In this document: positions 21,001 through 61,927 of the stretch, one piece after another
Position numbering within the stretch: the stretch's first letter is position 1
Layout: each line of letters begins with the position of its first letter
Made by a program: the position numbers and the translations under genes
Notes under the pieces: model-generated
Databases searched by the model: none
Seen by the model: the letters and a program-made list of their open reading frames with translations, nothing else
Told to the model about the DNA's origin: nothing
Origin: Eledone cirrhosa
Lineage: Eukaryota
Direction of reading: 5' to 3'
Length of the DNA stretch: 64,000 nt
NCBI GenBank assembly: GCA_964016885.1
Contig: OZ024740.1
Span: forward strand, 38,564,001-38,628,000

Positions 21001-24000
21001 ATGGGGTATAGTACTGTATGGTGGTATGTGATGGTATGTGTATGGGGTATAGTACTGTATGGTGGTATGTGATGGTATTTTTATGAGGTGTAGTACTGTA
21101 TGGTGGTATGTGATGGTATGTATATGAGGTGTAGTACTGTATGGTGGTATGTGATGGTATGTGTATGAGGTGTAGTACTGTATGGTGGTATGTGATGGTA
21201 TGTGTATGAGGTGTAGTACTGTATGGTGGTATGTGATGGTATGTGTATGGGGTATATTACTGTATGGTGGTATGTGATGGTATGTGTATGGGGTATACTA
21301 CTGTATGGTGGTATGTGATGGTATGTGTATGGGGTATAGTACTGTATGGTGGTATGTGATGGTATTTTTATGAGGTGTAGTACTGTATGGTGGTATGTGA
21401 TGGTATGTATATGAGGTGTAGTACTGTATGGTGGTATGTGATGGTATGTGTATGAGGTGTAGTACTGTATGGTGGTATGTGATGGTATGTGTATGGGGTA
21501 TAGTACTGTATGGTGGTATGTGATGGTATGTGTATGGGGTATAGTACTGTATGGTGGTATGTGATGGTATTTTTATGAGGTGTAGTACTGTATGGTGGTA
21601 TGTGATGGTATGTATATGAGGTGTAGTACTGTATGGTGGTATGTGATGGTATGTGTATGAGGTGTAGTACTGTATGGTGGTATGTGATGGTATGTGTATG
21701 AGGTGTAGTACTGTATGGTGGTATGTGATGGTATGTGTATGGGGTATATTACTGTATGGTGGTATGTGATGGTATGTGTATGGGGTATACTACTGTATGG
21801 TGGTATGTGATGGTATGTGTATGGGGCACAGTACTGTATGGTGGTATGTGATGGTGTGAGTATGGGGTATAGTACTGTATGATGGTATGTGAAGGTATGT
21901 GTATGAGGTGTAGTACTGTATGGTGGTGTGTGATGGTATGTGTATGGGGTATAGTACTGTATGGTGGTATGTGATGGTATGTGTATGCGGTATAGTACTG
22001 TATGGTGGTATGTGATGGTATGTGTATGGGGTATAGTACTGTATGGTGGTATGTGATGGTATGTGTATGGGGTATACTACTGTATGGTGGTATGTGATGG
22101 TATGTGTATGGGGTATAGTACTGTATGGTGGTATGTGATGGTATGTGTATGAGGTGTAGTACTGTATGGTGGTATGTGATGGTATGTGTATGGGGTATAG
22201 TACTGTATGGTGGTATGTGATGGTATGTGTATGGGGCATAGTACTGTATGGTGGTATGTGATGGTATGTGTATGAGGTGTAGTACTGTATGATGGTATAT
22301 GATGGTATGTGTATGGGGTATAGTACTGTATGGTGGTATGTGATGGTATGTGTATGGGGTATAGTACTGTATGGTGGTATGTGATGGTATGTGTATGGGG
22401 TATAGTACTGTATGGTGGTATGTGATGGTATGTGTATGAGGTGTAGTACTGTATGGTGGTATGTGATGGTATGTGTATGGGGTATATTACTGTATGGTGG
22501 TATGCGATGGTACGTGTATGAGGTGTAGTACTGTATGGTGGTATGTGATGGTATGTGTATGGGGTATAGTACTGTATGGTGGTATGTGATGGTATGTGTT
22601 TGGGGTATAGTACTGTATAGTGGTATGTGATGGTATGTGTATGAGGTGTAGTACTGTATGGTGGTATGTGATGGTATGTGTATGGGGTATAGTACTGTAT
22701 GGTGGTATGTGATGGTACGTGTATGGGGTATAGTACTGTATGGTGGTATGTGATGGTATGTTTATGAGGTGTAGTACTGTATGGTGGTATGTGATGGTAT
22801 GTGTATGGGGTATAATACTGTACGGTGGTATGTGATGGTATGTGTATGGGGTATAGTACTGTATGGTGGTATGGGATGGTATGTGTATGAGGTGTAGTAC
22901 TGTATGGTGGTATGTGTATGAGGTGTAGTACTGTATGATGGTATGTGATGGTATGTGTATGAGGTGTAGTACTGTATGGTGGTATGTGATGGTATGTGTA
23001 TGGGGTATAGTACTGTATGGTGGTATGTGATGGTATGTGTATGAGGTGTAGTACTGTATGGTGGTATGTGTATGGTATGTGTATGAGGTGTAGTACTGTA
23101 TGATGGTATGTGATGGTATGTGTATGAGGTGTAGTACTCTATGGTGGTATGTGATGGTATGTGTATGGGGTATAGTACTGTATGGTGGTATGTGATGGTA
23201 TGTGTATGGGGTATAGTACTGTATGGTGGTATGTGTATGGTATGTGTATGGGGTGTAGTACTGTATGGTGGTATGTGTATGGTATGTGTATGGGGTGTAG
23301 TACTGTATGGTGGTATGTGATGGTATGTGTATGGGGTGTAGTACTGTATGGTGGTATGTGATGGTATGTGTATGGGGTGTAGTACTGTATGGTGGTATGT
23401 GTATGGTATGTGTATGGGGTGTAGTACTGTATGGTGGTATGTGATGGTATGTGTATGGGGTGTAGTACTGTATGGTGGTATGTGTATGGTATGTGTATGG
23501 GGTGTAGTACTGTATGGTGGTATGTGATGGTATGTGTATGGGGTGTAGTACTGTATGGTGGTATGTGATGGTATGTGTATGGGGTATAGTACTGTATGGT
23601 GGTATGTGTATGGTATGTGTATGGGGTATAGTACTGTATGGTGGTATGTGTATGGTATGTGTATGGGGTGTAGTACTGTATGGTGGTATGTGATGGTATG
23701 TGTATGGGGTGTAGTACTGTATGGTGGTATGCGATGGTACGTGTATGAGGTGTAGTACTGTATGGTGGTATGTGATGGTATGTGTATGGGGTATAATACT
23801 GTATGGTGGTATGCGATGGTATGTGTATGAGGTGTAGTACTGTATGGTGGTATCTGATGGTATGTGTTTGGGGTATAGTACTGTATGGTGGTATGTGATG
23901 GTATGTGTATGAGGTGTATTACTGTTTGGTGGTATGTGATGGTATGTGTATGGTGTATAGTACTGTATGGTGATATGTGATGGTACATGTATGGGGTATA

Positions 24001-26818
24001 GTACTGTATGGTGGTATGTGATGGTATGTGTATGAGGTGTAGTACTGTATGGTGGTATGTGATGGTATGTGTATGGGGTATAGTACTGTATGGTGGTATG
24101 TGATGGTATGTGTATGGGGTATAGTACTGTATGGTGGTATGTGATGGTACGTGTATGGGGTATAGTACTGTATGGTGGTATGTGATGGTATGTGTATGAG
24201 GTGTAGTACTGTATGGTGGTATGTGATGGTATATGTATGGGGTATAATACTGTATGGTGGTATGTGATGGTATGTGTATGGGGTATAGTACTGTATGGTG
24301 GTATGTGTATGGGGTATAGTACTGTATGGTGGTATGTGATGGTATGTGTGTGGGGTATAGTACTGTATGGTGGTATGTGATGGTATGTGTATGAGGTGTA
24401 GTACTGTATGGTGGTATGTGATGGTACGTGTATGGGTATAGTACTGTATGGTGGTATGTGTATGGGGTATAGTACTGTATGGTGGTATGCGATGGTACGT
24501 GTATGGGGTATAGTACTGTATGGTGGTATGTGATGGTATGTGTATGACGTGTAGTACTGTATGGTGGTATGTGATGGTATGTGTATGGGGTATAGTACTG
24601 TATGGTGGTATGCGATGGTACGTGTATGGGGTATAGTACTGTATGGTGGTATGTGATGGTATGTGTATGGGGTATAGTACTGTATGGTGGTATGTAATGG
24701 TATGTGTATGGGGTATAGTACTGTATGGTGGTATGTGATGGTATGTGTATGAGGTGTAGTACTGTATGGTGGTATGTGATGGTATGTGTATGGGATATAG
24801 TACTGTATGGTGGTATGTGATGGTATGTGTATGGGGTATAGTACTGTATGGTGGTATGTGATGGTATGTGTATTAGGTGTTGTACTGTATGGTGGTATGT
24901 GATGGTATGTGTATGGGGTATAGTAGTGTATGGTGGTATGCAATGGTACGTGTATGGGGTATAGTACTGTATGGTGGTATGTAATGGTATGTGTATGGGG
25001 TGTAGTACTGTATGGTGGTATGTGATGGTATGTGTATGGGGTATAGTACTGTATGGTGGTATGTGATGGTATGTGTATGGGGTGTAGTACTGTATGGTGG
25101 TATGTGATGGTATGTGTATGAGGTGTAGTACTGTATGGTGGTATTTGATGGTATGTGTATGGGGTATAGTAGTGTATGGTGGTATGCAATGGTACGTGTA
25201 TGGGGTATAGTACTGTATGGTGGTATGTAATGGTATGTGTATGGGGTGTAGTACTGTATGGTGGTATGTGATGGTATGTGTATGGGGTATAGTACTGTAT
25301 GGTGGTATGTGATGGTATGTGTATGGGGTGTAGTACTGTATGGTGGTATGTGATGGTATGTGTATGAGGTGTAGTACTGTATGGTGGTATTTGATGGTAT
25401 GTGTATGGGGTATAGTACTGTACGGTGGTATGCGATTGTACGTGTATGAGGTGTAGTACTGTATGGTGGTATGTGATGGTATGTGTATGGGGTATAGTAC
25501 TGTATGGTGGTATGTGATGGTATGTGTATGGGGTATAGTACTGTATGGTGGTATGTGATGGTATGTGTATGAGGTGTAGTACTGTATGGTGGTATTTGAT
25601 GGTATGTGTATGGGGTATAGTACTGTATGGTGGTATGTGATGGTATGTGTATGGGGTATAGTACTGTATAGTGGTATGTGATGGTATGTGTATGGGGTGT
25701 AGTACTGTATGGTGGTATGTGATGGTATGTGTATGGGGTATAGTACTGTATGGTGGTATGTGATGGTATGTGTATGGGGTGTAGTACTGTATGGTGGTAT
25801 GTGATGGTATGTGTATGAGGTGTAGTACTGTATGGTGGTATTTGATGGTATGTGTATGGGGTATAGTACTGTACGGTGGTATGCGATTGTACGTGTATGA
25901 GGTGTAGTACTGTATGGTGGTATGTGATGGTATGTGTATGGGGTATAGTACTGTATGGTGGTATGTGATGGTATGTGTATGGGGTATAGTACTGTATGGT
26001 GGTATGTGATGGTATGTGTATGAGGTGTAGTACTGTATGGTGGTATTTGATGGTATGTGTATGGGGTATAGTACTGTATGGTGGTATGTGATGGTATGTG
26101 TATGGGGTATAGTACTGTATGGTGGTATGTGATGGTATGTGTATGGGGTATAGTACTGTATAGTGGTATGTGATGGTATGTGTATGGGGTATAGTACTGT
26201 ATGGTGGTATGTGATGGTATGTGTATGAGGTGTAGTACTGTATGGTGGTATGTGATGGTATGTGTATGGGGTTTAGTACTGTATGGTGGTATGTGATGTT
26301 ATATGTATGGGGTATAGTACTGTTTGGTGGTATTTGATGGTATGTGTATGAAATGTAGTACTGTATGGGGGTATGTGATGGTATGTGATGGTATGTGTAT
26401 GAGATGTAGTACTGTATGGTGGTATGTGATGGTATGTGTATGGGTTATAGTACTGTATGGTGGTATGTAATGGTATGTGTATGGGGTATAGTACTGTATG
26501 GTGGTATGTGATGGTATGTGTATGGGGTATAGTACTGTATGTTGGTATGTGATGGTATATGTATGGGGTATAGTACTGTTTGGTGGTATTTGATGGTATG
26601 TGTATGAAATGTAGTACTGTATGGTGGTATGTGATGGTATGTGATGGTATGTGTATGAGATGTAGTACTGTATGGTGGTATGTGATGGTATGTGTATGGG
26701 GTATAGTACTGTATGGTGGTATGTGAAGGTATGTGTATGAGGTGTAGTACTGTATGGTGGTATGTGATGGTATAGTACTGTATGGTGGTATATGTAAGAG
26801 GAGTAAGATACTGTATGG
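1..26818. repeat. 41-bp satellite array, ~650 units, running off the left edge; consensus GGTATAGTACTGTATGGTGGTATGTGATGGTATGTGTATGG
   Basis: Direct 41-nt periodicity. Two main variants (GGGGTATAG / GAGGTGTAG), plus 31- and 42-bp indel variants. The array decays at ~26770-26818. Confidence 0.99.
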
Positions 26819-29293: not shown

Positions 29294-29397
29294 CTGAAAC
29301 AGTTGCTATGGAAATGGGTATAACCAGCTAATAGTGAAATACTTCCTGTACCGAGAGCTAATGACAGAAAAAGTTGTTTAGTTGCATCAGACCACAC
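29294..29397 (-). CDS. SLC6 transporter exon, TM6 (VWSDATKQLFLSLALGTGSISLLAGYTHFHSNCFR)
   Basis: 104-bp exon with CAG acceptor and GTAAAA donor, phase 0 to 2. Matches the SLC6 consensus VWxDAATQIFFSLGxGxGxLIxxASYNxFxNNCYR. Confidence 0.95.
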
Positions 29398-29900
29398 CTG
29401 AAAATGACAGAATCATAATAGTTTAACTTTCATTAAATAAAGACACATAACAAATAAATCACTGATACATTTAAAAACATAAATTGCAAATTAATTTGTA
29501 TATTATTTCAATATGAAATTTACATTAAATTTTTCTGTCTGCACAGGTTACATCAATTTTTATAACCATTTTGGTTATCTTCTGAGCTCACAAATCATTC
29601 CTCACTCTCATCACATCTAGCAATATATTTCTGGTGTGTATGATCCCCTTTCATTATTGTTTAGCCTTTGTTCATAACTAATCCCTTAATTTTCTTACCT
29701 GCTAAGTCAAAGAAGAAGCTGGATGTTTAGTTAGCTGAGACCAACACAAAGTCAAATGGTAGATAGGAGAAATTAGGTTGCAGTAATTACTGCTTTATTT
29801 CAGAAGTTAAGAGTTTAGTGAAAATGGAAAAGGAATAACATGTCATTGATGATAAATACTAAAAATACTCACCTTTCATGTTTAAACTTATATATTGTGA

Positions 29901-30765
29901 TTGTTCACATTTTTAACTAGCCACACAAACTTGTTCACATTTTTAACTAGCCACACAAACTTGTTCACATTTTTAACTAGCCACACAAACTTGTTCACAT
30001 TTTTAACTAGCCAGACAAACTTGTTCACATTTTTAACTAGCCACACAAACTTGTTCACATTTTTAACTAGCCACACAAACTTGTTCACATTTTTAACTAG
30101 CCACACATACTTGTTCACATTTTTAACTAGCCACACAAACTTGTTCACATTTTTAACTAGCCAGACAAACTTGTTCACATTTTTAACTAGCCAGACAAAC
30201 TTGTTCACATTTTTAACTAGCCACACATACTTGTTCACATTTTTAACTAGCCACACAAACTTGTTCACATTTTTAACTAGCCACACATACTTGTTCACAT
30301 TTTTAACTAGCCACACAAACTTGTTCACATTTTTAACTAGCCACACATACTTGTTCACAATTTTAACTAGCCAGACAAACTTGTTCACATTTTTAACTAG
30401 CCACACAAACTTGTTCACATTTTTAACTAGCCACACATACTTGTTCACATTTTTAACTAGCCAGACAAACTTGTTCACATTTTTAACTAGCCACACAAAC
30501 TTGTTCACATTTTTAACTAGCCACACATACTTGTTCACATTTTTAACTAGCCACACATACTTGTTCACATTTTTAACTAGCCACACAAACTTGTTCACAT
30601 TTTTAACTAGCCACACAAACTTGTTCACATTTTTAACTAGCCACACAAACTTGTTCACATTTTTAACTAGCCAGACAAACTTGTTCACATTTTTAACTAG
30701 CCACACAAACTTGTTCACATTTTTAACTAGCCAGACAAACTTGTTCACATTTTTAACTAGCCACA
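29901..30765. repeat. 30-bp minisatellite, ~29 copies (TTGTTCACATTTTTAACTAGCCACACAAAC)
   Basis: Near-perfect tandem with three variants: CCACACAAAC, CCAGACAAAC and CCACACATAC. Confidence 0.99.
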
Positions 30766-30906
30766 AAAAAGCAGTGTTGCTATTGATTAATTAAACTGAT
30801 TTAATAAAGGCTAAGTAATGAATCTTGAGAATTTGAAGAATTTAGTAAAGATGCCAAGAATATAGTTTATGTGATGTTATTTTTTAGTATGATGTGTCCC
30901 ACATGT

Positions 30907-31137
30907 TGTTGTTGTGACAGCTCACACCTATGCAGGTTTAGCTGGCCTCCTCCAAGGTATATCTCGGAGGTGTCTTGGGTGATTTAATGATAGGGACCTC
31001 GGTCCTATCATCTCATTTCTACAGCTGAGTAAACTGGAGCAACGTGAAATAAAGTGTCTTGCTCAAGGAAACAACAAATCACCCGGTCCGAGAATTGAAC
31101 TCACAACCTTCCGATTGCAAGCCCAATGCACCTTCAC
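30907..31137 (-). mobile_element. tRNA-derived SINE (family A head) with (ACA)n tail and 15-bp TSD
   Basis: B-box GAGTTCAATTC and core TTGAGCAAGACACTTTATTTCAC on the minus strand. Flanked by ATGTG[T/A]CCCACATGT at 30892-30906 and 31138-31152. Confidence 0.85.
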
Positions 31138-31495
31138 ATGTGACCCACATGTGACAGTACAACTCAGCATTGCTACCCAGTGATATGGGCCCAGACAGTG
31201 TGGGAGTGTTCTCTCGTGTGTGTGTGAGCCCATGTGTAGGGCTGACTGGTGGACAGAATGGAGAAAATGTTGTTCCAGAGAATGGCGAGAAAGACATGCT
31301 GGAATAGCAATTCCAACTGGCAGGGCTTGCTCCTGTGGGTAACCACAACAAAGACTTCATGAAAATTATATACATTTGGGAATATTTATTCCCAAATTTA
31401 TATAATTTTCATGAAGTCTTTTTTATGATTATAAATGAAATAAATAGTTCTGATTTTAATTTTGTAAATAGTTGATGCTTAAAATGTCTACATAC

Positions 31496-31630
31496 CTGAA
31501 GTTTCTGTAATGCATCCCAACCAGGTGTAAGAAAAAATTTGACACTTGGCAAAGCCCCATCTAACATGCAAACACATATTAGAAGAGGCAGGACTAAAAT
31601 ATATGGAAGTATGGCAGTCAAATACATCAT
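31496..31630 (-). CDS. SLC6 transporter exon, TM5-EL3 (MMYLTAILPYILVLPLLICVCMLDGALPSVKFFLTPGWDALQKLQ)
   Basis: 135-bp phase 0-0 exon with a polypyrimidine tract, TAG acceptor and GTATGT donor. Matches VVYFTAxFPYxVLxxLLxRGxTLxGAxxGIxFYLxPxWxxL. Confidence 0.95.
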
Positions 31631-31726
31631 CTAGAATGGAATAGAAAAAAAGAAGTAGTTATGAAGTGTTAATACAACTAGGCTTCATTTACAAGAACTT
31701 TAGGATCTATAAAATATATATATATA

Positions 31727-32059
31727 TGGAGGCACATGGCTTAGTGGTTAGAGCATTGGCCTTGCAATCGAAAGGTTGTGAGTTCAATTCTCAGACTGGG
31801 TGATGTGTTGTTTCCTTGAGCAAGACACTTTATTTCATATTGTTCCAGTTTATTCAGCTGTAGAAATGAGATGATAGGGACTGGGGTCCCTATCATTCCA
31901 CTGCAAAATGGACGAGTAGATGCCACGGAAAAAAGCCCCCAGCACTCAATGTAAATGAGGTTGGTGTTAGGAAGGGCATCCAGCTGTAGAAATCAAGCCA
32001 GAATCAGTTCCCGTCCCACCCTTGCAAGCAGGGGAAAGCGGACGTAAAATGATGATGAT
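31727..32059 (+). mobile_element. tRNA-derived SINE (family A head) joined to an (ATG)n-tailed 3' module
   Basis: A-box TGGCTTAGTGG, B-box GAGTTCAATTC, an 11-bp hairpin ATGATAGGGAC/GTCCCTATCAT, then GTTAGGAAGGGCATCCAGCTGTAGAAA ... GGACGTAAAATGATGATGAT. Confidence 0.88.
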
Positions 32060-32369
32060 ACCTGTATATTAATTCTTAACAACCTGTACCACTTGACACC
32101 ACATTAACAAGATACAGTATCACTAGATATTGAAGTCTTTACTTTAGTTTACTACAACATTTGACAACAATCTGTTCACTGGTAAATATACTACAAACAT
32201 TTGAATTAATAAACCTATTATTAAATATTTTCTACTAAATCATTACAGAATGTTATGGTGTTTATTCTTTCAATTTCAAAGTCAATGTTTAGCCCATTAA
32301 GATTTGAATTTAGAACTAAGGAGGATGTAATAGATTAGAACAATATTCTACAGTTTCTGCCAACTTGTA

Positions 32370-32997
32370 GTTGTTCAACCTGCAAGTGATAGCAGCCAGA
32401 TCTCCCTCAAGTCACACCCTTAAAAGAGGAAGGATGCATTAGATTTAATAGTCTCTGATTTTCTGAGTCTAAAAAATAATGAAATAATCATGGCTGGCAG
32501 ATTTTGATCATTGGTCAACTCAGAGTTGACCTGAGCCTAAACTGACATGTTTTTTAACATTGGTCAACTTAGTTAGAGATGACCTGAGTCTAAACCGGCA
32601 TGTCTTTTGTCATTGTTCAGCTCAGGGCTGACCTGAGCCTTGACTGGCATGTTTGTGGACATTGATCAGCTTAGTTAGAGCTTACCTGAACCTAAACTGA
32701 CATGATTTTTGTCATTGGTGAGCTTAGAGCTGACTTGAGCCTAAACTGGCATATTTTTTGTCTTTGGTCAACTTAGAATGGGCTTGGGTCTAAACTGGCA
32801 TGATTTTGGTCTTTGGTCAGCTTAAAGCTGACGTGTGTCTTGACTGGAATGTTTTTGATCATTGGTGAGCTTAGGTGGAGCTGATTTGAGCCTTGACTGT
32901 CATATTTTTGGTCATTGATCAGCTTAGTTAAAGCTGACCTGAGCCTAAACTAGTCATTGATCAACTCAGAGATGCCCTGGACCTATACAATAACAAT
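32370..32997 (+). repeat. Interspersed-repeat 3' segment continuing into a ~45-50-bp degenerate tandem array (~10 units)
   Basis: 32375-32510 resembles 34765-34910. The unit (T)CATTGGTCAGCTTAGAGCTGACCTGAGCCTAAACTGGCATG then repeats to ~32990. Confidence 0.75.
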
Positions 32998-33300
32998 TTG
33001 TTGCTATACGTTCAATCTTTAGCTATCTTCACTACTCTTTCATTCTCATCAACGTTTTACATCTGCTTTTCCATGTTCCATCTCCTCTGCAATCTGCATC
33101 ATTTTAAAATCAGCTCTAACCACCTCTGCCCAGATTTTTCTTGGTCTTCCTATACTACAGCCATTGGCATCTCCTGGAACTTCTTCACTAGATCTATATA
33201 TTCATGCTTCACTCCTTAGTAGATATTCTCACATTTCTACATCTCCTCTTAATATCTTGACACAATAGTCATAACACCCTGTCACAGTACTCCCACCCTG

Positions 33301-33555
33301 ATGCTATTGGAGGTCAACCCCCACAACTACCACAATGTTTTTGGAGGTCAATCCCCTCAACTACCACAATGCTATTGGAGGTCAACCCCTACAACTACCA
33401 CAATGCTATTGGAGGTCAACCCCCACAACTACCACAATGCTATTGGAGGTCAACCCCCACAACTACCACAATGCTATTGGAGGTCAATCCCCACCCCCAC
33501 CACACTATTGGAGGTCAACGCCCACAACCACTGCTCTATTGGAAGTCAACCCTTC
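33301..33555. repeat. 34-bp minisatellite, ~7 copies (ATGCTATTGGAGGTCAACCCCCACAACTACCACA)
   Basis: Direct periodicity. The three supplied ORFs here start 34 nt apart. Confidence 0.95.
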
Positions 33556-33841
33556 AGTCTTGTCAAGGATATGATAGCCTCCCCTGTGCACTCGGTAGAA
33601 CTTAAGACCATACGTAAGTTAAATGCAGATCCCCACCCCCCTCCAACCTATTGGAGAAGTAGCCCTGCTTCAGTATTGACTTGGTTTATATAGACCCATC
33701 CAACCCTTGCTAGCAGGGAAACTAAACATTAAATGATGATGATGATGATCGTGATATTAATAGTTATTTCATTACGGTCTCAAGTACGGTACAGATACAA
33801 GCCGAAGCTGAAGCATATAGACAATATGCCCCCACCCTCTC

Positions 33842-34068
33842 CCACTGTAAAGTGGATGTGTAGGTGCCACGGAAAAAAAGCACCCAGCACTCACTGTAAA
33901 TGAGGTTGGTGTTAGGAAGGGCATCCAGCTGTAGAAATCAAGCCAGAATCAGTTCCCGTTTGAGCAAGACAAAGTCAGCCGACCGGACACTGCCCACAAC
34001 AGGACAACCCGTCTAACCCATGCTAGCATGGAAGAACGGACGTAAAACGGTGACGATGATGAGGATGA
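33842..34068 (+). mobile_element. SINE 3' module without a tRNA head, (ATG)n tail
   Basis: High similarity to 31898-32059. Ends CCCATGCTAGCATGGAAGAACGGACGTAAAACGGTGACGATGATG. Confidence 0.85.
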
Positions 34069-34130
34069 TTTCATTGGCAACATTACATAAAGTGAAAATA
34101 TTAATTTGTAATATCTTCCAGTGTGCTTAC

Positions 34131-34254
34131 CTTAGCCATTGAGTGTATTCCTCTAATAAGAATTATAAATACAAGTAACCAAGTAGCAAGAAGACAAAGA
34201 ACAAGTTGCCAGTTTCCGGACAAAGATTTTTCAGACTGGAGAAGTAGTGTCTGC
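34131..34254 (-). CDS. SLC6 transporter exon, end of EL2 and TM4 (QTLLLQSEKSLSGNWQLVLCLLATWLLVFIILIRGIHSMAK)
   Basis: 124-bp exon with TTTGTTTTAG acceptor and AAG|GTAAGC donor, phase 2 to 0. Matches WxLxLCLLxAWxxxFxxxxKGxxSSGK. Confidence 0.95.
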
Positions 34255-34399
34255 CTAAAACAAAAAACATTCAATTATATATTCTTTTTAAAAATCAATA
34301 AATATATCTGATTACTTTATTTTAATCAATACGTTTCATTTTTTCATATTCTTAAAACTCTTCTGATCATCTTAACTCTCTCTAATGATTTCTAATTTA

Positions 34400-34600
34400 G
34401 GCACAAGGCCAGCAATTTGACGGGTGGAGGAAAGTCTATTAAATCCATCCCTTTACTTGTTTTGGTACTTTATTTCATCGACCACAGAAGGATGAAAGGC
34501 AAAGTTGATCTTGGCAGGATTTGAACTCAGAATGTAAAAAGCTGGTATAAATAAACTGTGTCATTTTGTTCAATGCTCTACCGATTCTGCCAATCCATCC
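34400..34600 (-). mobile_element. tRNA-derived SINE, family B
   Basis: Minus-strand A-box-like TGGCAGAATCGG and B-box GAGTTCAAATCC. Core GATGAAAGGCAAAGTTGA shared with the copies at 37865 and 39270. Confidence 0.85.
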
Positions 34601-35002
34601 CATTCAATTTTTTCTATATATAATATAAATGCAATAAGTATGCATAATACATAATATCAATGTGATAAGCATAAATAATAGTTTCAATAACCAAACTGCT
34701 ATCTGTCTTTCCAGTTCCATTTACCCTAACTCTGTGGGTTCAAAGGAATTCCTTTGAGATCACACAGCTTGCTAGAAATAGCAGTAGAATCTCGTTCAAA
34801 TTTCATTTGTTTAAAAAGAGAGGGACACGTTGGATAGTGTTGTCCTAGATGTGCAATGCCTGAAAGAAGTCCAAGATGCTCATGGCTGGAATGACTTTGA
34901 TAATAGGTCTTTTCAGTTCTGAAAGCAACAACTTAGTATAAGTTTCCTTCTTAGATCACTGCATTGGCGCTTTAACTTGAAATATAACCCATAAATAACC
35001 TC

Positions 35003-35090
35003 TGCTACCACTGTCATATCTGACCACTCCCTCTACTACCACTGTCATATCTGACCACTATACTACCACTGTCACATCTGACCACTATCT
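35003..35090. repeat. Short ~27-30-bp tandem repeat x3
   Basis: CTACCACTGTCATATCTGACCACT occurs three times. Confidence 0.85.
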
Positions 35091-35102
35091 TATCACTATT
35101 AA

Positions 35103-35320
35103 CCCTTTAACATTTACATTACTCTATATTTACTATTGTATTTTCACCATAAACGTTTTATTTCACATAATTATCTCACATAATATCAAATCTATGAGAT
35201 CTTGATAGTTATTTTGAGAACAATACCTTAACATAAATATGAGTAGCTGGTTACAGCCAGTTTGAACAGAAAGAGGTGAGAGGATTCTGGCTGGATATGG
35301 CCGGTTTAAATGCTAAAGGG
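35103..35320 (+). mobile_element. piggyBac-like MITE with TTAA TSD
   Basis: TTAA|CCCTTTAACATTTA ... TAAATGCTAAAGGG|TTAA. Homologous to 36592-36810 and 28757-28984. Confidence 0.92.
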
Positions 35321-35488
35321 TTAATCCTTTTGTTAATGTATTTCTAATGCAAGACCCTGCCTATGGATTTCAAATTCCAATAGTAAAAAAATGATTTAGT
35401 AATATAACTAACTTTCTTGTTAAGCTGGTGTTTGAAAAATAACAAATGTTATTATACAAAATTATGATGGACGGTTCTTAGATAAATA

Positions 35489-36170
35489 CTAGCTGAGGTA
35501 CACGGCTTCGCCCAAGAGAACAGTTATGAGAAAACGACTGTATTGGATGTGTTGTATAGTAAGAGGTGAGACCGTAATGTGTGTGTGTGTGAGTGTGGGT
35601 GAGAGAGACATAAAAAAAACAATAATAAAACTTCCTTATTAGGCTGGGGGAGTAAACTGCCGATTAAATGGTAGCATTGGCCTTGGATTTTAGATATGAA
35701 ATAACCACAGTCAGTATGATGTTTTTCAGCTCCAAAGGACGTCATCTGAAACACAGCAATATTCTACATAACATTGCTTCTGAAGTGTTGCTTTGTTAGT
35801 ACGGACTGTAAGTAGTATATGGATAAAAGCTGGAGGGTAGATTAATTTCAAATAGTATCAACTTTTCTTTGTTCTTTAAAATCAAAGACTGTAAAACGAC
35901 TTTATAAAAGCTAACACAATATTGTTAATCCTTCCTATAGATCAAAGGATCATTTCTAGACTTTCGTGGGACGTTTCTCTCTCTCTCTCTCTGAATATCT
36001 AACACTTTAATTGTATCTCTCTCTGTATAACGGCCTATCTCTCTCTTTCTGCCTCTCCCTCTCTCTCTCTCTTTAGATGTGAGTGTGTCTGTGTGAGTAG
36101 TTTTCATGTGATTCAACCAACCAGCCAACCAGTCAACCAATAAACATCTTTCTTTTATATTATATATAGA
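35489..36170 (-). mobile_element. Non-autonomous Helitron with a RepHel coding remnant
   Basis: Minus strand reads A|TCTATATATAAT ... GGGCGAAGCCGTGTACCTCAGCTAG|T, giving a 5' TC, a 3' CTAG, an A|T target and a GC-rich subterminal motif. The internal peptide FQMTSFGA...KIQGQCYHLIGSLLP matches the Helitron RepHel N-terminal motif FQMTSFG...FKIQGQVYHxIGSLLP. Contains (CT)n and (GT)n microsatellites. Confidence 0.9.
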
Positions 36171-36230
36171 TAAACACTTTATTATTGTATTGTAGAACCA
36201 GGGTGGTTTCAGATAGTTTCATATCTAAAG

Positions 36231-36425
36231 CAGACCTGCCAACCTCTAAAAACCCAAACAGGGAGTACCATGAAAAGAAGTGCCCCAAAACAGGGAGAAA
36301 TGAGGCAAAATGGGGAGATTTTACATAATGAAAGCTATACAAATTTTCACAAGAGAAGACATCTCTCACCCACCCCAAAGTGGGCGGGAGATCTCCCCGT
36401 CTGATAGGGAGAGTTGACAGGTCTG
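36231..36425. mobile_element. 195-bp TIR element (MITE) with 7-bp TSD TCTAAAG
   Basis: TIRs CAGACCTGCCAAC / GTTGACAGGTCTG (12 of 13 match). TCTAAAG at 36224-36230 and 36426-36432. Confidence 0.85.
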
Positions 36426-36591
36426 TCTAAAGGGTTTAGTTAGTAAAATAAAAGCTTGCCGATCTTATTTATTAATTTTACATTTATTTACTGGCCTTCA
36501 TTGAAATATTGCAGTCAAAATAATTCTTCTTCAAATAATTCTTCAGTCAATTATTATGTGTTGACAATAATTAGTTTCAAAAAGTCATTAA

Positions 36592-36810
36592 CCATTTAGC
36601 ATTCACATTACTCTATATATACTATTGTATTTTCATGGTAAAGGCTTTACCTCACATAATATCTCATATAATATCGAATCTATGAGATTTTGAAAGTATT
36701 TATTTTGAGAACAATACCTTAACATCAGTTTGAGTGACCAGTTACAGCCAGTTTCAACAGAAAGAGGTAGAGAATTCTGGCCGGTTTTGGCTGGTTTGAA
36801 CATTAAAGGG
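36592..36810 (+). mobile_element. piggyBac-like MITE with TTAA TSD
   Basis: TTAA|CCATTTAGCATTCA ... AACATTAAAGGG|TTAA. Colinear with 35103-35320. Confidence 0.9.
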
Positions 36811-36938
36811 TTAAACTTTTTGTTTTAACTTTACAACAACCATTTCATTCAAATTATTTTATAAGGAACTTTCAATAACTTTTTTATGATGAAATAAATA
36901 GAGGTCAGTGAAAAATTGAAATCAACGAAAACACTTAC

Positions 36939-37098
36939 TGAAAATAGACACCGCTAGGTAAGTTATAAAGAGCAGTTGCCAGACTTGTGTTTGTTATATT
37001 CATATGGAGAGACAAACCAGCAGGAACTTGGTTCATTCCTTGATGATGGTGATATGTATGTGACATAATGAAGGAAGATTCACAAAGTGGGTGATTGC
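36939..37098 (-). CDS. SLC6 transporter exon, extracellular loop 2 (SNHPLCESSFIMSHTYHHHQGMNQVPAGLSLHMNITNTSLATALYNLPSGVYFQ)
   Basis: 160-bp open exon with TTTTCTTACAG acceptor and GTAAGT donor. Phase 1 to 2 fits both neighbours exactly. It supplies the second EL2 Cys, the N-glycosylation sequons NIT and NTS, and LPSGVYF, equivalent to SPxEEYF. Confidence 0.9.
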
Positions 37099-37137
37099 CT
37101 GTAAGAAAATAATTTTTTTTTTAATCACTATATAGAA

Positions 37138-37297
37138 CAGGGTTTCCCACCCTTTTTAATTCAGAAACTTTTGTGGGGACACCAAAGTCTAATATATGGT
37201 CTTAATATAAATATACTCCTCTGCCTTTTTTCACAGAACCCCAGACACACCTTTGCAGAACCCTTGGGTTCTATGGAACCCACATTGAGAACCACTG
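37138..37297. mobile_element. hAT/Charlie-like MITE, copy 2
   Basis: CAGGGTTTCCCA ... TGAGAACCACTG. The 8-bp flanks ATATAGAA / TTATAGAG match at 6 of 8 and resemble NTCTAGAN. Confidence 0.78.
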
Positions 37298-37864
37298 TTA
37301 TAGAGCAAACATGTCATATATATTTACTGGATAAAAAGAAATCTTTGAAAATTGTTATATAGAATAAACATATGAAATGTAGCTTTAGAAAAGATTGTCA
37401 ACTTATATTATATAATTAAATAGAAAGGAAAAAACAATATTGTTAAAATGTAAAAATAAATTTAATTATAAAATTATATTGTCACATTTAATACAATTAA
37501 ATCTTTTTAGCTAAAATGAAAATATAGTTGAAATTATCTTAATGTAGCAAAACAAATGAGAGTTATGATTCAATATTCAGAAATTAGACAATTGAAACAG
37601 CAAATTTAAATAGTTTTCTGTCAATAAACATTGTATATATGTGGCTGATCTCTCAGACTTTTACAGAGATGGGGGAATAAAGTTAATATAAAGAATGGTG
37701 TGTTCATAAGTAGAGATGATATAAAATAGCTTATAAAATAGGGTGAAGGCCCTTAAAGATAGAAAGAGAAGTTGCCATCGACTACTGTGAGGAAGAGCCC
37801 TATATCTCACCCATTATATTGAAATGGTATTTTATGGAATATTATTATTCCATAGAGGAAGTAG

Positions 37865-38189
37865 GTATAGTATGGTATGGACCCGTAACTCTAGAGTGAG
37901 TCGTAGGGGTGCCATATTGACATACAGTGTTTGTAGGGCACTTTTTTAAACCTGGCAGAGCCCATCTCCTAGTAGATTTCTTGCAGAGACGGATGGAGAG
38001 AGTGAGAGAAAGGAAGTGAGAAAGAGGAAGAATCAAACCCAGTACATGACTGGTACTTTTTTTATCGACTATGAATGGATGAAAGGTAAAGTTGACCTCG
38101 GTGGGATTCGAACTCAGAGAGCAGAGAGTCGAAATGAATACTACAAAGCATTCATCCGACATTCTAACGACTCTGCTAATTCACTGCCT
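37865..38189 (-). mobile_element. Full-length tRNA-derived SINE, family B, with 13-bp TSD and (CCATA)n-like tail
   Basis: TSD ATAGAGGAAGTAG at 37852-37864 and 38190-38202. B-box GAGTTCGAATCC. The tail reads CCATACCATACTATAC on the element strand. Confidence 0.88.
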
Positions 38190-38307
38190 ATAGAGGAAGT
38201 AGTACCATTAGTAATACAGTTAAGAAATCTTATACTTTAGTTCTTGGTCTATAGAGGAAGTAGTACCATTAGTAATACAGTTAAGAAATCTTATACTTTA
38301 GTTCTTG
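38188..38307. repeat. 61-bp-period perfect direct duplication
   Basis: Two copies of CTATAGAGGAAGTAGTACCATTAGTAATACAGTTAAGAAATCTTATACTTTAGTTCTTG. Confidence 0.95.
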
Positions 38308-38487
38308 AAATATTGGTTATAAATACTGTGGACATAACTTTTGGTTGAAATTACTACATTGTGAATAAGTTTAAATTTATAGAACAGTTAAATTCAAGGA
38401 TGGAAATTTATATCAACTGGTCAGAAATCTTTTAATTCCAGAAATATAGGATCCAACCCTTTCTTGCAGGCAAAAAAGACATTAAAC

Positions 38488-38700
38488 AATGACAATGACG
38501 ATGGTGATGATGATGGTGATGTGGCGGCAATGGTTGTAATGGTGATGATACTGATGATGGTAATGATGATGATGATGATGATGATGATAATGGTGATGAT
38601 GATCGTGGGGATAATGATAAAAGTGATGATGGTCATTATGATGGTGATGATGATCATGATATAATGATTATGATGATGATGGTGGTGATGATAATGGTAG
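38488..38700. repeat. Degenerate (ATG/GTG)n microsatellite
   Basis: Trinucleotide low-complexity tract. Confidence 0.95.
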
Positions 38701-38703
38701 TAA

Positions 38704-38889
38704 TCATCATCATCATCATCATCATCGTTTAACGTCCATCTTCCACACTAGTATGGGTTAGACGGCTTTGTTCCACTTGATGTGGGAATGGTCGGGAGAC
38801 CGCGTCTAGCTCGCATGGAAGCGTCTCTGGCAGGTTTTTTTACAGCTGGATGCCCTTCCTAACACCAACCACATTTACAGTGTGGACTG
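38704..38889 (-). mobile_element. SINE 3' module with (ATG)n tail, inverted relative to the copies at 31898 and 33842
   Basis: (CAT)n CGTTTAACGTCC ... TACAGCTGGATGCCCTTCCTAACACCAACC. Confidence 0.85.
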
Positions 38890-39060
38890 TTGTGTCATCG
38901 ACACAGTGGACGGATCGGGAGAGGGGGTGGGGTAGGGTGTGGCGGTGGGGTGTACATTGACAATGATAAGCGTGATAATGGTCACGATGATGATGATAAA
39001 GTTTATCCTAGTGTAAAAGATGAGAGTTTGCAGTGAAATGAGGTTTAATGATGTACTCAC

Positions 39061-39198
39061 TGTTTGTGTATGTTTTACTACAAATCCATGGTAAAGGTTG
39101 CATGATGGATATACCAGCATAGTAAAGACTCCAAGATGTAATGACACTATAATACATGGCAATAAGGATTGTTACTACTAACATTGCCCAGCTAACAC
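39061..39198 (-). CDS. SLC6 transporter exon, TM3 (GVSWAMLVVTILIAMYYSVITSWSLYYAGISIMQPLPWICSKTYTN)
   Basis: 138-bp phase 1-1 exon with TTTACAG acceptor and GTGAGT donor. Matches GxGxAMxxxxxxxxxYYNVIIAWxLYYxxxSxxxxLPWxxC. Confidence 0.95.
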
Positions 39199-42740: not shown

Positions 42741-43140
42741 GGATTCATTGAAGCTCCGACGCCTGGCAACTGACTTGGTAAACACCCACAAAATTGTTAA
42801 CCATGTTGCCAACAACAACCCTGAGTGCCTTTTCGATTTCCATGTGTCTAACACACGTGGACATGCCCACAAAGTAAGAAAACAGCACAGTTCCCATGAC
42901 TTTCGGAAACATTTTTTCACGCTCAGAGTTGCTGAAGCATGGAACAAACTACCTGCATCAGTTGTTAGCTGTCGAGACATTGCATCCTTTAAGGCCTCCA
43001 TGCTTCCCGAGATCCGCCAACACTACAGCTAACACATACAAACATGTACTTCCCTGGCATTTGTGTATTATTCTATGTACTATATTGACGAGTTGTAGTG
43101 CACCTGAGCACTTTACACAATAATTTCATTATTATTTTAT
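42741..43140 (+). mobile_element. 5'-truncated CR1/L2-group LINE (ORF2 C-terminus and 3' UTR) inserted in the 61-bp satellite
   Basis: Peptide SLKLRRLATDL...TRGHAHKV...RKHFFTLRVAEAWNKLPASVV...SFK matches the CR1-type C-terminal motifs LxxRRxxxDL, TRGH and FFxxRVxxxWNxLP. 3' stem-loop GTGC-ACCTGA-GCAC and an (ATT)n tail. The satellite register resumes on both sides. Confidence 0.92.
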
Positions 43141-46100
43141 ATACACCATCTCTTGTCATTAACAAGAGTTAACAGTAGAACTACTGTCAATACTATAACA
43201 TATACACCATCTCTTGTCATTAAGAAGGGTTAACAGTAGAACTACTGGCAATACTATAACATATACACCATCCCTTGTCATTAAGAAGTGTTAACCGTAG
43301 AACTACTGGCAATACTATAACATATACACCATCTCTTGTCATTAAGAAGGGTTAACAGTAGAACTACTGGCAATACTATAACATATACACCATCCTTTGT
43401 CATTAAGAAGGGTTAACAGTAGAACTACTGGCAATACTATAACATATACACCATCTCTTGTCATTAAGAAAGGTTAACAGTAGAACTACTAGCAATACTA
43501 TAACATATACACCATCTCTTGTCATTAAGAAGGGTTAACAGTAGATCTACTGGCAATACTATAACATATACACCATCTCTTGCCATTAATAAGGGTTAAC
43601 AGTAGAACTACTAGCAATAATATAACATATATACCATCTCTTGTCATTAAGAAGGGTTAACAGTATAACTACTGGAAATACTATAACATATACACCATCT
43701 CTTGTCATTAAGAATGCTTAACAGTAGAACTACTTGCAATACTATAACATATACACCATCTCTTTTCATTAACAAGGGTTAACGGTAGAACTACTGGCAA
43801 TAATATAAGATATACACCATCTCTTGTCATTAACAAGAGTTAACAGTAGAACTACTGTCAATACTATAACATATATACCATCTCTTGTCATTAAGAATGG
43901 TTAACAGTAGAACTACTTGCAATACTATGACATATACACCATCTCTTGTCATTAACAAGAGTTAACAGTAGAACTACTGTCAATACTATAACATATACAC
44001 CATCTTTTGTCATTAAGAAGGGTTAACAGTAGAACTACTGGCAATACTATAACATATCCACCATCCCTTGTCATTAAGCAGTGTTAACCGTAGAACTACT
44101 GGGTAATACTATAACATATACACCATCTCTTGTCATTAAGAAGGGTTAACAGTAGAACTACTGGCAATACTATAACATATACACCATCTTTTGTCATTAA
44201 GAAGGGTTAACAGTAGAACTACTAGCAATACTATAACATATACACCATCTCTTGTCAATAATAAGAGTTAACAGTAGAACTACAGGCAATACTGTAACAT
44301 ATACACCATCTCTTGTCATTAAGAAGGATTAACAGTAGAACTACTGGCAATACTATAAGATATACACCATCTCTTGTCATTAACAAGGGTTAACAGTAGA
44401 ACTACTGGCAATACTATAACATATATACCATCTCTTGTAATTAACAAGGGTTAACAGTAGAACTACTGGCAATACTATAACATATATACCATCTCTTGTC
44501 ATTAAGAAGGGTTAACAGTATAACTACTGGAAATACTATAACATATACACCATCTCTTGTCATTAAGAAGTGTTAACCGTAGAACTACTGGCAATACTAT
44601 AACATATACACCATCTCTTGTCATTAAGAAGGGTTAACAGTAGAACTACTGGCAATACTATAACATATACACCATCCTTTGTCATTAAGAAGGGTTAACA
44701 GTAGAACTACTGGCAATACTATAACATATACACCATCTCTTGTCATTAAGAAAGGTTAACAGTAGAACTACTAGCAATACTATAACATATACACCATCTC
44801 TTGTCATTAAGAAGGGTTAACAGTAGATCTACTGGCAATACTATAACATATACACCATCTCTTGCCATTAATAAGGGTTAACAGTAGAACTACTAGCAAT
44901 AATATAACATATATACCATCTCTTGTCATTAAGAAGGGTTAACAGTATAACTACTGGAAATACTATAACATATACACCATCTCTTGTCATTAACAAGGGT
45001 TAACGGTAGAACTACTGGCAATAATATAAGATATACACCATCTCTTGTCATTAACAAGAGTTAACAGTAGAACTACTGTCAATACTATAACATATATACC
45101 ATCTCTTGTCATTAAGAATGGTTAACAGTAGAACTACTTGCAATACTATGACATATACACCATCTCTTGTCATTAACAAGAGTTAACAGTAGAACTACTG
45201 TCAATACTATAACATATACACCATCTTTTGTCATTAAGAAGGGTTAACAGTAGAACTACTGGCAATACTATAACATATCCACCATCCCTTGTCATTAAGC
45301 AGTGTTAACCGTAGAACTACTGGGTAATACTATAACATATACACCATCTCTTGTCATTAAGAAGGGTTAACAGTAGAACTACTGGCAATACTATAACATA
45401 TACACCATCTTTTGTCATTAAGAAGGGTTAACAGTAGAACTACTAGCAATACTATAACATATACACCATCTCTTGTCAATAATAAGAGTTAACAGTAGAA
45501 CTACAGGCAATACTGTAACATATACACCATCTCTTGTCATTAAGAAGGATTAACAGTAGAACTACTGGCAATACTATAAGATATACACCATCTCTTGTCA
45601 TTAACAAGGGTTAACAGTAGAACTACTGGCAATACTATAACATATATACCATCTCTTGTAATTAACAAGGGTTAACAGTAGAACTACTGGCAATACTATA
45701 ACATATATACCATCTCTTGTCATTAAGAAGGGTTAACAGTATAACTACTGGAAATACTATAACATATACACCATCTCTTGTCATTAAGAATGGTTAACAG
45801 TAGAACTATTTGCAATAATATGACATATACACCATCTCTTTTCATTAACAAGTGTTAACAGTAGAACTACTGGCAATACTATAAGATATACACCATCTCT
45901 TGTCATTAACAAGAGTTAACAGTAGAACTACTGTCAATACTATAACATATACACCATCTCTTGTCATTAAGAAGGGTTAACAGTAGAACTACTGGCAATA
46001 CTATAACATATACACCATCACTTGTCATTAAGAAGTGTTAACCGTAGAACTACTGGCAATACTATAACAGATACACCATCTCTTGTCATTAAGAAGGGTT

Positions 46101-49100
46101 AAAAGTAGAACTACTGGCAATACTATAACATATACACCATCCTTTGTCATTAAGGAGGGTTAACAGTAGAACTACTGGCAATACTATAACATATACACCA
46201 TCTCTTGTCATTAAGAAAGGTTAACAGTAGAACTACTAGCAATACTATAACATATACACCATCTCTTGTCATTAAGAAGGGTTAACAGTAGATCTATTGG
46301 CAATACTATAACATATACACCATCTCTTGTCATTAATAAGGGTTAACAGTAGAACTACTAGCAATAATATAACATATATACCATCTCTTGTCATTAAGAA
46401 GGGTTAACAGTAGAACTACTGGCAATACTATAACATATACACCATCTCTTGTCATTAATAAGGGTTAACAGTAGAACTACTGGCAATACTATAACATATA
46501 TACCATCGCTTGTCATTAACAAGAGTTAACAGTAGAACTACTGGCTGTACTATAACATATATACCATCTCTTGTCATTAACAAGTGTTAACAGTAGAACT
46601 ACTGGCAATACTATAACATATACACCATCTCTTGTCATTAAGAAGGATTAACAGTAGAACTATTGGCAATACTATAACATATACACCATCTCTTGTCATT
46701 AACAAGGGTTAACAGTAGAACTGCTGGCAATACTATAACATATAAACCATCTCTTGTCATTAAGAAGAGTTAACGGTAGAACGACTGGCAATACATATAT
46801 ACCATCTCTTGTCATTAACAAGGGTTAACAGTAGAACTATTCGCAATACTATAACATATACACCATCTCTTGTCATTAAGAAGGGTTAACAGTAGAAATA
46901 CTGGCAATACTATAACATATACACTATCTCTTGTCATTAAGAAGGGTTAACAGTAGAACTACTGGCAATACTATAACATATACACCATCTAGAACTATTG
47001 GCAATACTATAAAATATACACCATCTCTTGTCATTAAGAAGGGTTAACAGTAGAACTACTGGCAATACTATAACATATATACCATCTCTTGTCAGTAACA
47101 AGGGTTAACAGTAGAACTACTGGCAATACTATAACATATACACCATCTCTTGTCATTAAGAAGGGTTAACAGTAGAACTACAGGCAATACTATCACATAT
47201 ACACTATCTCTTGTCATTAACAAGGGTTAACAGTGGAACTATTCGCAATATTATAACATATACACCATCTCTTGTCATTAAGAAGGGTTAACAGTAGAAC
47301 TACTGGCAATACTATAACTTATACACCATATCTTGTCATTAAGAAGGGTTAACAGTAGAACTATTCGCAATACTATAACATATACACCATCTCTTGTCAT
47401 TAACAAGGGTTAACAGTAGAACTACTGGCAATACTATAAAATATACACCATCTCTTGTCATTAACAAGCATTAACAGTAGAACTACTGGCAATACTATAA
47501 CATAAATACCATCTCTTGTAATTAACAAGGGTTAACAGTAGAACTACTGGCAATACTATAACATATATACCATCTCTTGTCATTAAGAAGGGTTAACAGT
47601 ATAACTACTGGAAATACTATAACATATACACCATCTCTTGTCATTAAGAATGCTTAACAGTAGAACTACTTGCAATACTATAACATATACACCATCTCTT
47701 TTCATTAACAAGGGTTAACGGTAGAACTACTGGCAATAATATAAGATATACACCATCTCTTGTCATTAACAAGAGATAACAGTAGAACTACTGTCAATAC
47801 TATAACATATATACCATCTCTTGTCATTAAGAATGGTTAACAGTAGAACTACTTGCAATACTATGACATATACACCATCTCTTGTCATTAACAAGAGTTA
47901 ACAGTAGAACTACTGTCAATACTATAACATATACACCATCTTTTGTCATTAAGAAGGGTTAACAGTAGAACTACTGGCAATACTATAACATATCCACCAT
48001 CCCTTGTCATTAAGCAGTGTTAACCGTAGAACTACTGGGTAATACTATAACATATACACCATCTCTTGTCATTAAGAAGGGTTAACAGTAGAACTACTGG
48101 CAATACTATAACATATACACCATCTTTTGTCATTAAGAAGGGTTAACAGTAGAACTACTGGCAATACTATAACATATACACCATCTCTTGTCATTAAGAA
48201 CGGTTAACAGTAGAACTACTAGCAATACTATAACATATACACCATCTCTTGTCAATAATAAGAGTTAACAGTAGAACTACAGGCAATACTGTAACATATA
48301 CACCATCTCTTGTCATTAAGAAGGATTAACAGTAGAACTACTGGCAATACTATAAAATATACACCATCTCTTGTCATTAACAAGGGTTAACAGTAGAACT
48401 ACTGGCAATACTATAACATATATACCATCTCTTGTAATTAACAAGGGTTAACAGTAGAACTACTGGCAATACTATAACATATATACCATCTCTTGTCATT
48501 AAGAAGGGTTAACAGTATAACTACTGGAAATACTATAACATATACACCATCTCTTGTCATTAAGAATGGTTAACAGTAGAACTATTTGCAATAATATGAC
48601 ATATACACCATCTCTTTTCATTAACAAGTGTTAACAGTAGAACTACTGGCAATACTATAAGATATACACCATCTCTTGTCATTAACAAGAGTTAACAGTA
48701 GAACTACTGTCAATACTATAACATATACACCATCTCTTGTCATTAAGAAGGGTTAACAGTAGAACTACTGGCAATACTATAACATATACACCATCCCTTG
48801 TCATTAAGAAGTGTTAACCGTAGAACTACTGGCAATACTATAACAGATACACCATCTCTTGTCATTAAGAAGGGTTAAAAGTAGAACTACTGGCAATACT
48901 ATAACATATACACCATCCTTTGTCATTAAGGAGGGTTAACAGTAGAACTACTGGCAATACTATAACATATACACCATCTCTTGTCATTAAGAAAGGTTAA
49001 CAGTAGAACTACTAGCAATACTATAACATATACACCATCTCTTGTCATTAAGAAGGGTTAACAGTAGATCTATTGGCAATACTATAACATATACACCATC

Positions 49101-61100: not shown

Positions 61101-61863
61101 AAGGGTTAACAGTAGAACTACTAGCAATACTATAACATATATACCATCTCTTGGCATTAAGAAGGGTTAACAGTAGAACTACTGGCAATACTATAACATA
61201 TACACCATCTCTTGTCATTAACAAGTGTTAACAGTAGAACTACTGGCAATACTATAACATATACACCATCTCTTGTCATTAAGAAGGGTTAACAGTAGAA
61301 CTACTGGCAATACTATAACATATACACCATCGCTTGTCATTAAGAATGGTTAACAGTAGAACTATTTGCAATACTATGACATATACACCATTTCTTTTCA
61401 TTAACAAGGGTTAACAGTAGAACTACTGGCAATACTATAAGATATACACCATCTCTTGTCATTAACAAGAGTTAACAGTAGAACAACTGGCAATACTATA
61501 ACATATACACCATCTCCTGTCATTAAGAAGGGTTAACAGTAGAACTACTGGCAATACTATAACATATACACCATCCTTTGTCATTAAGAAGGGTTAACAG
61601 TAGAACTACTAGCAATACTATAACATAAACACCATCTCTTGTCATTAAGAAGGGTTAACAGTCGATCTACTGGCAATACTATAACATATACACCATCACT
61701 TGTCATTAATAAGGGTTAACAGTAGAACTACTAGCAATACTATAACATATATACCATCTCTTGGCATTAAGAAGGGTTAACAGTAGAACTACTGGCAATA
61801 CTATAACATATACACCATCTCTTGTCATTAATAAGGGTTAACAGTAGAACTACTGGCAATACT

Positions 61864-61927
61864 CTTTTACTCTTTTATTCTTTTACCTGTTTCAGCCATC
61901 CGGCTGAGGCCATGCTGGGGCACCGCA
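61864..61927 (-). mobile_element. Short retroposon (SINE/LINE) 3'-end fragment inserted in the 61-bp satellite
   Basis: A ~64-bp non-satellite insert reading GCGGTGCCCCAGCATGGCCTCAGCCGGATGGCTGAAACAGG plus a (TAAAAGAR)n tail on the minus strand. It interrupts CAATACT|ATAACAT. Confidence 0.8.

Follow-up and report, generated by a model that had tools for sequence, protein, structure and literature searches.

Five atypical SLC6 exons of Eledone cirrhosa belong to a candidate double SLC6 gene that pairs a degenerate unit with a near-canonical one

Five minus-strand exons in a 64,000-nucleotide stretch of the Eledone cirrhosa genome (hereafter the window, C1:38564001-38628000 of a 3.0-Gb assembly, C1 being contig OZ024740.1) encode part of an SLC6 sequence with unusual motifs and represent exons 4-8 of a larger gene, which comprises 27 exons, extends over more than 826 kb and has a predicted product of about 2,014 residues. 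The usual view takes SLC6 transporters to be single units of 12 helices, and it has long been debated whether they oligomerise and for what reason. We regard it as very probable that here two such units are fused in one protein and favour, with some reservation, the reading that the first unit is a non-pumping partner and the second a working Na+/amino-acid transporter.

The window exons total 661 nt, end in AG/GT at every exon and splice into a frame without a stop, as a preliminary description of the window had it, and the motifs that it quoted (YYS, RGIHSMAK, CVCMLDGA, QLFLSLALGTG and AGYT) are all found in the spliced frame. Its placement of Leu at the F253 and Thr at the F259 position of LeuT is confirmed on a hidden Markov model (HMM) alignment, with LeuT numbering drawn in part from PMC6590891, and the Y108- and Y268-equivalent tyrosines are indeed kept. 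The motifs are thus present, but some are commoner than had been supposed: among 98 ordinary SLC6 proteins only 69 have N as the last letter of YYN, and Thr259 occurs in 5 of 94, and the severest residue losses lie outside the window, in transmembrane helix (TM) 1, the N-terminal gate and TM8. Four of the five exons match PF00209 (SNF) singly, with E values from 2e-7 to 1e-3, and the exon of extracellular loop 2 (EL2) gives no Pfam SNF match when scanned alone. The closest and sole protein match to exon 4 is a partial Argonauta hians protein of 82% identity, for which a search for longer relatives gave none at E<=1e-20. DNA contigs from read sets X1-X3, which come from one sample and possibly from the assembly's own source, cover exons 4-7, and those over exons 4, 5 and 7 differ from the assembly in 0 letters; none were placed on the linker exon (below), which weighs neither way.

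For the exon search beyond the window we used the Argonauta protein, a splice-phase scan and an SLC6 profile of 75 representative proteins chosen from 151. The resulting exons 1-12 encode 651 aa with no stop and a membrane core without a gap, score 430 bits on the SLC6 profile and, together with the 82% identity to an Argonauta protein, bear out the earlier view that this is not a pseudogene. A TM7 candidate at C1:38518457 was rejected, as it contains a stop and has no splice sites, and exon 9 was found by the splice-phase scan instead. All 24 exons on C1 join over 826 kb into 1,379 aa with GT-AG introns throughout, and no stops, frameshifts or broken splice sites are found across them. Splice phases agree across exons 12-13-14; the single-copy linker exon 13, which matches no Pfam family, has a strong acceptor, a GTAAGT donor and phase 0 at both ends, and the second unit starts on a splice acceptor in the linker frame, 138 kb past the linker (intron 13) and 174 kb past exon 12. 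About 770 bases after exon 24, C1 carries a 200-N gap (38154236-38154435), and the unplaced 173-kb contig C436, which holds the tail exons, probably belongs there. The predicted protein ends in a C-terminal motif common to most orthologues, which we take to resemble a PDZ-binding end. Exon lengths of the two units match (132/132, 239/239, 125/125, 248/245, 201/198 and 174/174), as expected for SLC6 paralogues, and identity between Eledone and Argonauta is 83.6% over 207 columns in the first unit and 92.0% over 522 columns in the second. Intron 1 alone measures 272 kb (C1:38981399-38709135), five introns of the gene exceed 70 kb, and one octopod-expanded tail exon (C436:148950-147323) has 543 codons with repeated S-P-E-H-N-like units, far longer than bivalve tails.

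The double architecture recurs across molluscs. The top matches of a representative search are proteins of 1,000-1,700 aa, several of them molluscan, and those of Ylistrum, Mytilus and Physella carry a degenerate SLC6 unit resembling the first unit of Eledone, followed by a conserved linker and a near-canonical unit resembling the second. A profile built from four linkers matched 42 proteins, of which all named ones are from molluscs (23 genera). Leaving aside 11 matches that are single-exon open reading frames (ORFs) of 114-183 aa on short contigs, SLC6 sequence lies on both sides of the linker in 26 of the 31 whose domains were examined (20 named bivalve and gastropod genera), only upstream in 2 and only downstream in 3, so that two SNF units per polypeptide, rather than one, are present in 26/31 orthologues and in the Eledone exon chain. 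The possible orphan status suggested from the window is accordingly not supported, nor is a stand-alone gene: the sequence makes up the front half of a tandem double SLC6 whose orthologues occur in both bivalves and gastropods. RefSeq lists several double-form isoforms in oyster, abalone and snails, and one Argonauta model contains the second unit joined to the linker exon. One Logan contig, assembled de novo and most likely a transcript, encodes in 6,099 nt a complete double protein of 1,555 aa and therefore has no introns. A separate double SLC6 model in Gigantopelta (XP_041349165.1, P0006), monoamine-type in the inspected unit and without a linker match, could reflect merged annotation or another fusion event.

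Several observations weigh against fusion as the main state of the locus. No cephalopod record spans the first unit to the linker, the Argonauta sequence being split into the partial models GAB1598094 and GAB1598096; two oyster Logan contigs (P0188 and P0213; 987 aa) open on the linker and differ in their 5' end, and a transcript of the second unit only, from an internal promoter or as a short isoform, may exist. Skipping of the exon-13 donor would bring in a stop about 20 codons further on and so yield a stand-alone first unit. Models deposited for related species may depend on one another, the complete protein is covered by a single de novo contig, and co-splicing in Eledone is a prediction from genomic exons. 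These points could be accommodated by two neighbouring genes, or by one locus with mainly separate products (a degenerate SLC6 protein, and a transporter made of linker and second unit that is expressed through an internal promoter), the double form being minor or an annotation merge; the 138-kb intron 13, an in-frame Met shortly before the second unit and the stop met on read-through after exon 13 would fit as well. We nevertheless consider separate products improbable, given that Eledone, bivalves and gastropods all conserve the linker exon, whose phases match in Eledone, that both units occur together in 26 of the 31 examined records and in one intronless contig, and that the long non-repetitive ORFs of introns 12-13 amount to only three retroelement-like frames and one of low quality. 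Unrelated double SLC6 models, from a nematode, a centipede and the monoamine-type pair of Gigantopelta, are absent from the linker matches.

To characterise the two units, 23 first and 23 second units were compared on an HMM alignment whose per-column denominators vary, with Na and Cl site lists from PMC6590891 and PMC8310414 and the role of Tyr176/Tyr108 as given in PMC6829555. The Eledone first unit reads LALNISSILHFAS in TM1, where the family has YAVGLGNVWRFPY, so that neither the Na1 Asn nor the outer-gate Arg is present, and its Na1 positions N27/T254/N286, in the site definition of those papers, are S/S/N. Among first units generally, N27 is kept in 5/22 and N286 in 5/21, and the Cl-site Ser in 0/21. 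For the gates, which we take to be R30-D404 and F253 on the outside and R5-D369 and Q361/E on the inside, Eledone carries H, D and L and E, M and Q, respectively, so that the inner-gate Arg/Asp pair is also gone, and first units retain R30 in 0/22, R5 in 1/21 and D369 in 2/21. Replacements at the lost sites differ between species, with no common substitute. Out of 11 ion and gate residues, a set picked after the residue comparison had been seen and omitting the retained W8, Y47, E62, S/T254 and Y268, first units keep 0-4 (Eledone 4), against 8-11 in second units and 6-11 in 67 complete ordinary SLC6 proteins. At the 17 functional columns, first units match the family consensus in 37% of cases, against 60% at the 96 scaffold columns (p 0.024, p-values being optimistic as the sequences are related), and for second units the respective figures are 96% and 84%; scaffold residues thus persist in both units and ion and gate residues mainly in the second. 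Cutting the other way, the modal conservation of first units shows no significant gap between functional and scaffold columns (0.59 versus 0.70, p 0.11), and first units retain the Gly-Thr-Gly of TM6 in 21/21, Y47 in 23/23, S/T254 in 21/21, E62 in 23/23 and Y268 in 17/21. The monoamine-type Asp98-equivalent of TM1 is absent from both, first units having G in 18, N in 2 and S in 2 of 22 and second units G in 23/23.

Despite these losses, the first unit is predicted to keep the full 12-helix LeuT fold. AlphaFold2 with a 43-row alignment returned a confident 12-helix first unit for the oyster orthologue, with a core predicted local distance difference test (pLDDT) score mostly of 80-95. Superposition on SERT, which had been proposed as a check, was made with this orthologue rather than with the Eledone protein and gave Z 47.0 and a root-mean-square deviation of 2.1 A over 511 residues (6vrh); the best Foldseek match is GlyT1, with a TM-score of 0.89. 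The linker falls below pLDDT 50 in this alignment-based model, which held little of the second unit, and a single-sequence AlphaFold model of the Mytilus double protein reached a pLDDT of 38.9. ESM Atlas returned only generic SNF clusters.

The preliminary description had left open whether the protein has a novel substrate or ion coupling or is non-transporting. An ion-coupled first unit with a new substrate or coupling ion would be consistent with the full predicted fold, the identity to Argonauta and a Na2 site that is partly kept (Asn/Ser in Eledone), but the Na1 Asn persists in 5/22, the outer-gate Arg in 0/22 and the inner-gate Arg in 1/21, with no common replacement. We therefore hold this alternative, weakened because ion and substrate positions vary among orthologues with no single new set, to be very improbable; the varying replacements are better explained by relaxed constraint than by a shared new substrate, and the non-transporting option fits best. 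The exception to this variation is the invariant Gly-Thr-Gly of TM6, which makes the Thr259 noted in the window, as judged from the aligned residues, a signature of first units. Indeed, the triplet lies at the S1 pocket floor, where Thr occurs in only 5/94 ordinary SLC6 proteins, and with the Y47, E62, E419 and S/T254 retained in first units, the Y108, Q250, N286 and D404 retained in Eledone and the preservation of the entire unit in three mollusc classes, it would suit a fusion whose first unit has retained solute binding or passage, be it as a leak path, an uncoupled carrier or a sensor tuning the second unit. We find this rather unlikely, as both gates are lost and the TM1 pocket is free to vary (D, R, H, G, E or S at the G26 position, Y108 in 11/22), unlike the trace that a shared ligand would leave.

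The second unit, by contrast with the first, keeps 11/11 of the ion-site and gate residues in Eledone, and all are kept in 20 of 23 second units. Because all 23 carry Gly at LeuT G24 and Asp at N286, the second unit is, judging by its residues, probably a sodium-driven carrier of small neutral amino acids that depends little on chloride; according to PMC8310414, Asp at the N286 position goes with weak or absent chloride dependence in KAAT1 and B0AT proteins. The likeness to KAAT1/CAATCH1 and B0AT-type chloride-independent SLC6 proteins is one of this residue; they are single-unit proteins, unlike the tandem molluscan form. The best solved-structure matches of the Argonauta first unit are of GlyT2 type (E 1e-37 to 5e-35), within the amino-acid branch of GlyT2/SLC6A5, GlyT1 and PROT. 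The Eledone second unit shares with GlyTs a Trp at the 259 position; the molluscan protein nevertheless differs from this branch in having two units per chain, the first without ion sites and gates, and a second unit with Asp at N286 and no E419. Drosophila bedraggled is a stand-alone, degenerate orphan SLC6 protein whose transport residues are eroded and which is suspected of a role other than transport; no bedraggled-type sequence was identified among the matches obtained here.

In a 31-row tree under a mixture model, first units form one clade (100/100) and second units another (100/99), the branching of first units follows cephalopod, gastropod and bivalve, and neither clade groups with GlyT2, although few named GlyTs are in the tree. 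Two further trees are similar, one with weak support for pulmonate second units. Both units stand apart from fish GlyT2 (P0052) across a branch of 92/92. A single clade of first and second units is neither rejected nor demonstrated, with an approximately unbiased (AU) test p of 0.18 and an ultrafast bootstrap (UFBoot) value of 63 with two other rows inside, and a flatworm protein and one other protein lie near the two clades; an origin by early tandem self-duplication would be consistent with this topology. First units evolve 1.8-2.6 times faster than second units, and the whole first unit is retained across three mollusc classes. In the pulmonates Physella, Biomphalaria and Bradybaena (P0004, P0172 and P0173) the second unit is eroding, with 8-9 key residues left and a long branch, and both halves may be non-pumping there.

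We propose that an early tandem duplication and fusion would have placed two SLC6 (LeuT-fold) units in one chain of ~2,014 residues, after which the first unit, released from transport, would have lost most sodium-site and gate residues while keeping its fold. It could then act as a built-in partner that aids the folding, membrane arrival or regulation of the second unit, which would pump small neutral amino acids with Na+. Counting against this model, the second unit is itself eroded in the three pulmonate snails. By a slight balance of probability, we suggest that a single-chain 24-helix SLC6 protein has existed since before the split of cephalopods, snails and clams, its dead unit being an obligate chaperone or a Gly-Thr-Gly-pocket solute sensor that controls the live one, and the whole a natural covalent SLC6 heterodimer.

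Table 1. Coordinates of the gene's exons and of the intronic satellites (window positions count from the first letter of the window)
Feature	Location	Strand	Description
Exons 1-3	C1:38981503-38708014	-	Start codon, degenerate TM1, TM2; 105-378 kb upstream; found with the Argonauta protein
Exon 4	window 39061..39198	-	138 nt; TM3 (YYS; Y108-equivalent retained) and start of EL2, first SLC6 unit
Exon 5	window 36939..37098	-	160 nt; EL2 including second cysteine
Exon 6	window 34131..34254	-	124 nt; TM4 and RGIHSMAK loop
Exon 7	window 31496..31630	-	135 nt; TM5 and extracellular loop 3
Exon 8	window 29294..29397	-	104 nt; TM6 QLFLSLALGTG; Leu at F253, Thr at F259, Y268 retained
Exons 9-12	C1:38520222-38379776	-	TM7-12; up to 214 kb downstream; profile and splice-phase scan
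Linker exon 13	C1:38343919-38343734	-	186 nt, 62 aa, between the two units
Second SLC6 unit, exons 14-24	C1:38205583-38155210	-	Near-canonical unit
Tail exons 25-27	C436:152220-146220	-	Unplaced contig
61-bp satellite array	window 43139..63587		61-bp x337, within 104.8-kb intron 3
41-bp satellite array	window 1..26773		41-bp x655, within 73.1-kb intron 8

Two huge intronic satellites flank the five window exons, and the long ORFs within them are repeat artefacts. A short fragment resembling a retroelement (the end of a long interspersed nuclear element), read by eye from the translation, lies inside the 61-bp satellite at window positions 42699-43125.

The double architecture is annotated in databases but, within the literature searched, unremarked: no description of a tandem or double SLC6 protein was found there, in a search that misses most subscription papers, and six orthologue locus ids returned no publications. 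The main text of 10.1101/301192, which presents a 503-protein SLC6 tree including octopus, does not mention a double SLC6, and its supplements may hold these sequences; slc6 passages in PMC9815951 and 10.1101/2024.04.14.589438 concern slc6a15/18. Database names for the double orthologues are mostly 'uncharacterized' (LOC111125661 in C. virginica, LOC106067429 in Biomphalaria, LOC124115625 in Haliotis and others), and fragments in cephalopod and snail records are labelled as dopamine, GABA, betaine or glycine transporters, the Argonauta record being named 'dopamine transporter-like'. The annotation is corrected here, as such transporter-labelled fragments can mislead neurotransmitter-marker work in octopus. 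If our reading is true, a covalent pair of a dead and a live SLC6 unit would allow a direct test of a partner's effect on folding, trafficking and gating, and would offer both a ready target for cryo-electron microscopy and a clear case of a pseudo-transporter, analogous to pseudokinases.

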